IMG/VR virus record: IMGVR_UViG_3300025918_000011
Location: 5,377 to 69,376 of that record
Origin: a virus
Lineage: Duplodnaviria; Caudoviricetes
Reading direction: 5' to 3' (one strand)
DNA: 64,000 bases
Shown here: positions 25,999-27,587 of the stretch, one piece after another
Numbering within the stretch: position 1 is the stretch's first letter
Layout of the letters: each line of letters begins with the position of its first letter
Position numbers and translations under genes: made by a program
The notes under the pieces: model-generated
What the model was told of the DNA's origin: nothing
The model's database searches: none
The model's input: the letters and a program-made list of their open reading frames with translations, nothing else

Positions 25999-27587
25999 TC
26001 TCTCGATACTCGCGGCACGGTTGCTCTCCATTGCTACGGCTCGCTCAGGCGGCTCGATACTATCTTCCGAAACGGCTCGCGCATCACAATGAGTTTCAAA
26101 TCCTTCGATACGGCTCGCTCTGTCGTTTCGGCGCGCTCACTCTCATCGGCCTCGCTCGACCTTTACGGTACGCTCACAAGCATCGGCCATCGGCCCGTCG
26201 ATCCGCTCATTCAATATTGGTGCTCTCGTCGACCGCGGCTCGTTCGTGCGTTGCGGCGCTCTCAACATTTTGCGACTCACTCGGCCACGGCGGCACACTC
26301 TTTGCGCTGCGGCTCGCTCGTCGATTACGGGGTGCTCCTTACGTAGGCTCGTTCGTGGTATGCGATGCTCGATCAAGGTCTTCGACTCGCTCCGAAGCAT
26401 CGTTTCTATATCTACGTTTCCGGCTCGATCAATGCTCTCGATCGTTGCGTCTGCGTTCTCGATCTTACGTCTCGTCTCGTTCCATGGCTTGCGGCGCTCT
26501 CACTTCCAACGACTCGATCAGTCCTCCACGTTTTCAACTTCGAAGAGTCCGTCTCGCTCCGTCTCGCTCTTAGGTCCCGGTACCCTCGCACCTCCCGGCT
26601 CGCTTCGTGCCTCGTTGCTTCGTCCAGCACTACGGCTGCAACGCCGTCGTCGCCGTCGTCGTCTCGCTCACTCGTTTCCGGTGCCATCGTCAACTGCGGC
26701 TCGCTCCGCTGCGGCACGGTACGCTCCTTCTCATCGGCTCGCTCTTCGTACGCGGTGCACTCCATCGCGGTCGACTCGCTCCCTAATCACGGCGTGCGAC
26801 GTGCATCGCACACTCACTCGGGGCGGCTCGCTTCGTCGTTCCCGGCGCTCTCATCAAGTACGGCTCGCGCAAGAAACCCGTTACACCTCTATTCAGACGG
26901 CTCGATCAACAACGCACGGCTCTCTCGTCAGCTACGTCTCGTTCTGCTCGTACGGTACGCTCGCGCAATCGGCGACTCGTCTCGTTCGTCTCGTCTCGCT
27001 CCCTAGCATTGGTTCTCTCGCTGGCTTCGACTCGCTCGAGTGTCTCGGTGCTCGCATGATTTGCGGCTGCGGCTCGCAGCTCGCAGCTCGCTCAACATCG
27101 ACGTTGCTGTCGTTCCCTTGGGCTCGTTCGGTCGTTCGGTCACGTCGGGTACACTCCGGACTAGCGACTCGCTCTCGATCGACGTTGCGACGTTCATTGT
27201 CCTTGGGCTCGTTCGGCATCGCCCGGTGCGCTCCCATCTCCCGACTCGCTCGTCGACAACGGTCTCTCTCTGCTCGGTTGGCTCGCTCGGACGCTGCGAT
27301 ACAAAATCTTCGACTCCGACTCGCTCGCTGACAACGGTCTCGCTCGTCTCTGTCGGCTCGATCACGATCAAAGGTACTCTCGCGAATCACGACTCGTTCA
27401 CAAGTCACGGCACGCGCGTATAGATCGACTCGCTCTCGTGGTACGGTGCTCTCGAAGAAGGTAGCTCGTTCGAGGGGTGCGGTGCTCTCTTTAGAGGCGA
27501 CTCGACGGCTCGATCTAGCATCACGGTACGCTCTCATTTGGCGACTCGCTCCTACGCTACGGCACTCTCAGGCACACCGACTCGTCG
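25991..27587 (-). ncRNA. TIGR-like tandem interspaced guide RNA array (36-nt dual-repeat units)
   Basis: Plus strand alternates CGRCTCGYTC - 8 nt - CGGYRCKCTC - 8 nt. First-type repeats start at 27354, 27390, 27426, 27462 and at 27506, 27542, 27578 (exact 36-nt period); also at 26037 and 26073. Confidence 0.88.

Follow-up and report, generated by a model that had tools for sequence, protein, structure and literature searches.

The window analysed here, which covers 64 kb of a virus record that is 69,376 bp long and rated as complete, comes from a tailed phage with a GC content of 66.9% that encodes a DNA polymerase, a helicase, a fused head protein and protease, a portal protein and a large terminase. 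Among cultured phages, megablast returned no match to 20 kb of the window, and no terminase of a cultured phage exceeds 41% identity to that of the window, so that the host cannot be inferred from this protein. The locus under study occupies the minus strand and comprises the following features:

25074..25952, minus strand: tasA, encoding a protein of 293 aa with a Nop domain only, free of a nuclease
26019..27587, minus strand: TIGR array of alternating edge and loop repeats, 10 nt each, with spacers mostly of 8 nt
27600..28385, minus strand: open reading frame of 261 aa (ORF261), between the promoter-like site and the array
28496..28524, minus strand: sigma-70-like promoter match, 9 of 12 hexamer positions, a consensus match only

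The array has the dual-repeat TIGR-Tas anatomy defined by Faure et al. 2025 (PMC12045711), in which two alternating repeats of 8-12 nt and spacers of 8-12 nt make up a unit of approximately 36 nt beside a tas gene. Parsing of the minus strand divides it into about 43 such 36-nt units, of which 23 are fully regular and the others degenerate or broken up by stretches of 14-42 nt; 78 copies of the repeats and 58 spacers measuring 7-10 nt were recognized. The 3′ end of the array is separated by 66 nt from the start of tasA, which follows it on the same strand. A previous sequence-only reading had recognized an array with 8-nt spacers at this position, and this is borne out, the example spacers given there being the reverse complements of those in our minus-strand parse. 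As is characteristic of TIGR-Tas, where co-varying edge and loop repeats both carry a box D at the beginning and a box C at the end, the two repeat types have identical first and last bases, and pairing is possible between a G close to the start and a C close to the end. The terminal base is G in both repeat types, as opposed to A in 35 of the 37 relatives with parsed arrays, and the array of a Latescibacterota metagenome-assembled genome (MAG; L071:9560-11545) contains a mixture of repeats ending in G and in A; this distribution suggests that the last base of box C can change jointly in the edge and loop repeats. Near-identical spacer pairs within the window array, which would point to recent duplications, are not in excess, with 5 observed against 4 expected.

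The protein encoded next to the array carries the Nop (IS110-type RNA-binding) domain of TIGR-Tas proteins. It matches the Pfam family Transposase_20 above the family cut-off (E = 5e-5) and, in the PDB, chain 9mty_A (E = 2.7e-17) and the SpTasH chain 21kl_A (E = 8.8e-11), with only the Nop part of both chains aligned; its first ~50 residues are of low complexity and rich in Ala, Ser and Pro. Neither an RuvC nor an HNH domain is present at the N-terminus, no nuclease family was found in Pfam, and the matches to TasR and TasH begin past the nuclease domains of these proteins, placing the protein in the TasA subtype. The gene is intact, with normal codon bias, and has 71 relatives (40 viral and 31 cellular loci) at 36-56% amino acid identity, among which 43 alignment columns are invariant.

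The promoter-like site is the only one within positions 24800-28700 and could, judging from its placement, drive ORF261, the array and tasA as a single transcript. Pfam, PHROG and the PDB yielded no convincing relative of ORF261, the best candidates being a below-cutoff match to DUF4372 and one weak PDB match (E = 7e-4), and no homologue of this protein is encoded beside tasA in any of the 71 related loci. Since sequence searches of Pfam and the PDB gave no ParB match either, the arrangement is not that of a tasParB-tasA operon. ORF261 probably stands outside the conserved module, which would consist of tasA and the array only. Overall, this is a genuine but ordinary TIGR-TasA locus.

What sets the spacers apart from the phage that carries them is their composition. 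The 42 clean 8-nt spacers contain 168 G or C among 336 bases (50.0%; A 90, G 85, C 83, T 78), and all 58 spacers of 7-10 nt together reach 50.4% GC. By comparison, the GC content is 66.9% for the whole genome, 67.6% for coding DNA, 64.6% for DNA outside the reading frames and the array, and ~85-90% for third codon positions. Sets of 42 8-mers drawn at random from the genome (20,000 draws) averaged 66.9% GC (sd 2.5), with a minimum of 57.4%, which puts the spacers at z = -6.8. Thus, the contrast noted in the sequence-only reading, that the spacers are richer in AT than the phage, is real, and the full array does not share the GC of the genome, although the extent of the difference was overstated: the hand tally of 44% over 22 spacers, itself within sampling error of 50%, is too low for the full set.

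We considered whether such spacers are filler under no constraint, in an array that is decaying or rapidly shuffling, with a composition set by drift. Only 23 of the ~43 units are regular, and spacers are replaced quickly: in three pairs of relatives that we compared (L020/L021, L003/L006 and L025/L037), spacer turnover is much faster than that of tasA, such that at 96% tasA DNA identity only about 10 spacers can be aligned between arrays of 23 and 43, with 11% of their bases differing, and at 88% identity 3 of 52 spacers are shared. The spacers that are shared retain their order. Drift describes this pace of change but fails to explain the spacer GC, because weakly constrained DNA of the same genome is far richer in GC (65% in non-ORF DNA and 85-90% at third codon positions, not 50%). 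Furthermore, tasA is intact and shows normal codon bias, intact arrays of relatives have the same spacer GC, and the GC counts of individual spacers vary less than expected under a binomial distribution, a small effect (ratio 0.83, p = 2e-5, compared with 0.94 for flanking 8-mers). This explanation is therefore very improbable.

The composition of the relatives' arrays bears most directly on what the offset means. Arrays could be parsed in 37 loci, with flanking DNA of 35-69% GC, very similar repeats and an invariable location on the tasA strand. Over these loci, which all fall into one TasA clade and do not independently sample the TIGR family as a whole, spacer GC = 0.275 + 0.361 x flank GC (SE of the slope 0.075, r = 0.63, p = 2.5e-5), and the window array falls on this trend. 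In all 23 GC-rich loci (flank GC of at least 0.55), which come from soil, marine and other sources, the spacers are below the flanks, by 0.113 on average, whereas in AT-rich loci spacer GC averages 0.034 above that of the flanks. Spacers mirroring target DNA similar to that of the carrier would give a slope near 1, not 0.361; because spacer GC tracks the carrier so weakly, composition cannot reveal the prey, and because the same offset recurs in every GC-rich relative and is absent or opposite in AT-rich ones, it belongs to the class of guides and not to the prey of one phage. Thus, a spacer GC of about 50% is probably a property of guides throughout this TasA clade rather than the fingerprint of a low-GC source.

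Within the spacers, the first base after either repeat is biased towards A or T (GC 0.30-0.41) in both GC-rich and AT-rich loci, and may be a weakly constrained position beside box C; the other spacer positions are near 50% GC in GC-rich loci. The GC contents of the two spacers of a unit, A and B, show no correlation (r = -0.045, n = 521), a comparison without power given that even adjacent genomic 8-mers correlate at just r = +0.047.

These observations also bear on the original inference, from AT-richer spacers to foreign targets of low GC, from which the spacers would have been copied or against which they would have been selected. Such targets would mean another host range or low-GC plasmids and phages. 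The 50% GC of the spacers against 67% for the phage speaks for this scenario, and the guides match neither the phage itself nor 0.89 Mb of related loci. Nevertheless, with the offset found in 23 of 23 GC-rich relatives and gone or reversed in AT-rich ones, the step from composition to low-GC targets fails: all GC-rich carriers would have to prey on DNA of lower GC, and AT-rich carriers on DNA of higher GC. In addition, the natural match described below, in Acidobacteriaceae bacterium KBS 96, sits in DNA with the GC content of the carrier itself. A low-GC source is, accordingly, quite unlikely.

Target sites were searched for directly by joining the two spacers of each unit in all four pairings. 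The pairing A+revcomp(B) was taken as the expected one, because it is consistent with the 8-nt 3′ overhangs and the ‘C - 5’ rule of cleavage that have been published (PMC12045711), and the other three pairings served as controls. For the 23 regular units of the window array, none of the four pairings, with gaps of 0-2, produced a site with 0 or 1 mismatch in the 69-kb phage genome, upholding the absence of self-matches previously noted by eye; matches with 2 mismatches occurred at the level of the control pairings, and no promoter of the phage was matched. When 529 guides, including those of the window, were compared with 0.89 Mb of TasA loci, three pairings, including two controls, yielded one exact match apiece, no more than chance would give, and the window guides had no target there. 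Co-localized pairs of near matches in the TasA loci number 5 in the real pairing and 9-11 in each of the other three; the sole pair that contains an exact match is the one from KBS 96. In the Latescibacterota MAG (G001), 43 guides showed no excess over the other pairings across 2.8 Mb, a weak test since the record consists of joined contigs. The ‘chromosome’ of this record (CP070677.1, L073-L212) is made of contigs connected by 100-N linkers every few to tens of kb, and a 16S primer motif had no match in its first 2.8 Mb.

Two cultured carriers were tried by exact pattern search, KBS 96 and Halomonas sp. NO4, with five guides each. In KBS 96, which is represented by a 6.69-Mb scaffold, tasA (L052:7977-8783) encodes a protein 50% identical to that of the window, and the array (L052:8795-9003) has five full units. 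Unit 1, in the expected pairing and with a gap of 0, matches at 16 of 16 positions a site at G002:C1:6329962-6329977 (L213:1501-1516); the probability of such a match by chance is ~0.003 for that AT-rich guide and ~0.03 over the five guides. The site is 31% GC within DNA of 57% GC, in which 4.6% of 16-mers are as AT-rich, and corresponds to codons 9-14 of a small HTH_17 gene, 25-40 nt past the gene start. Its neighbours in the same row of genes are a second HTH_17 gene, an XRE repressor and a tyrosine integrase, and the next 5 kb encode a small terminase, a capsid protein and a prohead protease. The matched DNA is a second, compact integrated element, ~0.5 Mb away from tasA. The element that carries tasA, for its part, resembles a prophage and encodes a PDDEXK nuclease-like protein, an AAA_24 protein, a methylase and an integrase, and the two elements have at least 2 homologous genes in common, at 68-73% DNA identity.

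A further guide of the same array points to the same region. Unit 4 matches at 14 of 16 positions a site at 6329052-6329067 (L213:591-606), ~0.9 kb from the first and inside one of the shared genes, with the mismatches confined to the two outermost bases; the homologous stretch of the tasA element does not match this guide, the best site in that locus having 4 mismatches. Because a control pairing also yields a 2-mismatch match within the same 6 kb, the 14/16 match lends no more than mild support. For unit 3, one 1-mismatch match was found, at G002:C1:5607599-5607614, with a chance probability of ~0.1. Halomonas sp. NO4 provided one exact match among its five guides, with a 1-base gap, in a transporter-like gene (L214:1501-1517; G003:C36:12058-12074). 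The guide in question is GC-rich and the chance of the match is ~0.02; this case is ambiguous, could be due to chance and does not fit the picture of AT-rich sites. Taken together, the two isolates gave 2 exact matches for 10 guides against ~0.08 expected, and the reversed-pattern control gave 0. We regard the KBS 96 prophage guide and the second element, on the strength of their sequences, as a candidate natural TIGR-TasA guide-target pair. Among the targets proposed in the sequence-only reading, competing mobile elements gain indirect support from this one case, in which the guide of a relative's prophage matches a second element in full, whereas their supposed low GC does not, the targeted DNA being of ordinary GC (57%).

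Host promoters, another of the proposed targets, lead to a different reading of the same composition, namely, that the guides aim at AT-rich promoters or operators of a GC-rich host or of the phage's rivals, so that low GC would reflect the type of site and not the physics of the guide. This would agree with the activity of TasA, which represses transcription without cutting, as shown with the stem-loop MbTasA (bioRxiv 10.64898/2026.09.09.750476). Moreover, 16-mers of at most 50% GC are commoner in the non-coding DNA of this phage (17.5%) than in its coding DNA (10.2%), and the exact site in KBS 96 is locally AT-rich and lies just inside the start of a regulator gene. However, the spacers of AT-rich relatives are not below genome GC even though promoters there are more AT-rich still, both KBS 96 sites fall in reading frames with no promoter-like site nearby, and no promoter of the window phage was matched. 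As a general class of target, promoters are thus not upheld, and regulatory DNA as the source of the low spacer GC appears unlikely.

We instead favor an explanation in which the composition stems from the guides themselves. By analogy with the RNA processing to 36 nt and the tandem-spacer targeting rules reported for TIGR-Tas (PMC12045711), the array would presumably give a minus-strand transcript that is cleaved into tigRNAs of 36 nt, and the two 8-nt spacers of each tigRNA would guide a dimer of TasA to a DNA site of 16 bp, with spacer A pairing with one DNA strand and spacer B with the other. A binder that lacks a PAM and an ATPase would presumably have to open 16 bp and hold two RNA-DNA hybrids of 8 bp, so that guides and sites of intermediate GC should work best and, hence, be retained; we consider this the likeliest cause for spacer GC staying near 45-50% irrespective of how GC-rich the carrier genome is. 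Among the TIGR papers that could be searched, we found none that mentions guide GC or relates it to TasA binding. The targets would then be sites that are locally rich in AT, within DNA of ordinary, similar GC, most likely in rival mobile elements of the same host, which TasA would bind and silence without cutting. As a whole, the account of a TIGR-TasA guide array with GC-buffered guides and with targets in rival elements, the latter extrapolated from a relative, seems to us the best available and reasonably probable.

More tentatively, phage and prophage TIGR-TasA arrays in general might serve as silencers of related rival elements that share the cell with them and are possibly satellites exploiting the carrier. 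Guides would be kept only for mid-to-low-GC 16-bp sites that open easily, and spacer GC would thereby be fixed near 45-50% in any genome; in that case, KBS 96 would be the first strain in culture to offer a guide and its natural target. This generalization is possible, though we would not yet bet on it. If it is true, the TasA prophage of KBS 96 silences the early regulator/replication operon of a compact element encoding an integrase, a regulator, a small terminase, a capsid protein and a protease. Both Zhang-lab papers name as open questions where TIGR spacers come from and what they target in nature, and a pair of this kind in a cultured soil bacterium would make the biological role of TasA testable at the bench. 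Furthermore, the weak tracking of the carrier by spacer GC suggests that guides have a physical optimum, a point that would be relevant to the design of tigRNAs.

Among known systems, the closest to the window locus is dual-repeat TIGR-TasA, for example, FpTasA of Flavonifractor plautii (PMC12045711), which likewise pairs a solo Nop protein with an adjacent array. The shared traits are two alternating short repeats and two short spacers per 36-nt unit, an array on the strand of the gene, a phage carrier and the lack of adaptation genes. The window array differs in having spacers of 8 nt and repeats of 10 nt where 9 and 9 are commoner, and in the final G of its repeats, where the published consensus, like 35 of the 37 parsed relatives, has A; it is also long and partly degenerate. 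TIGR-TasH of Salicola phage CGphi29 (SpTasH; PDB 21kl and others) resembles the window locus in being phage-borne and in its 8-nt spacers, which amount to 16 nt of guide per tigRNA, and its Nop domain aligns with the window TasA (E = 8.8e-11), the only match from a cultured phage. By contrast, SpTasH has an N-terminal HNH nuclease and cuts DNA, whereas the window TasA has no nuclease domain. Box C/D snoRNA guides, which function with Nop5/Nop56-58, direct RNA methylation together with fibrillarin and L7Ae, whereas TIGR-Tas binds double-stranded DNA. With CRISPR, finally, the TIGR arrays share the combination of repeats and variable guides on mobile elements, where both are thought to act on rival DNA. 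However, CRISPR spacers are 30-40-nt copies of their targets, inserted by Cas1-Cas2, whereas TIGR spacers come as pairs of 8-9 nt, the GC content of which, in the relatives studied here, follows that of the carrier only weakly (slope 0.36).
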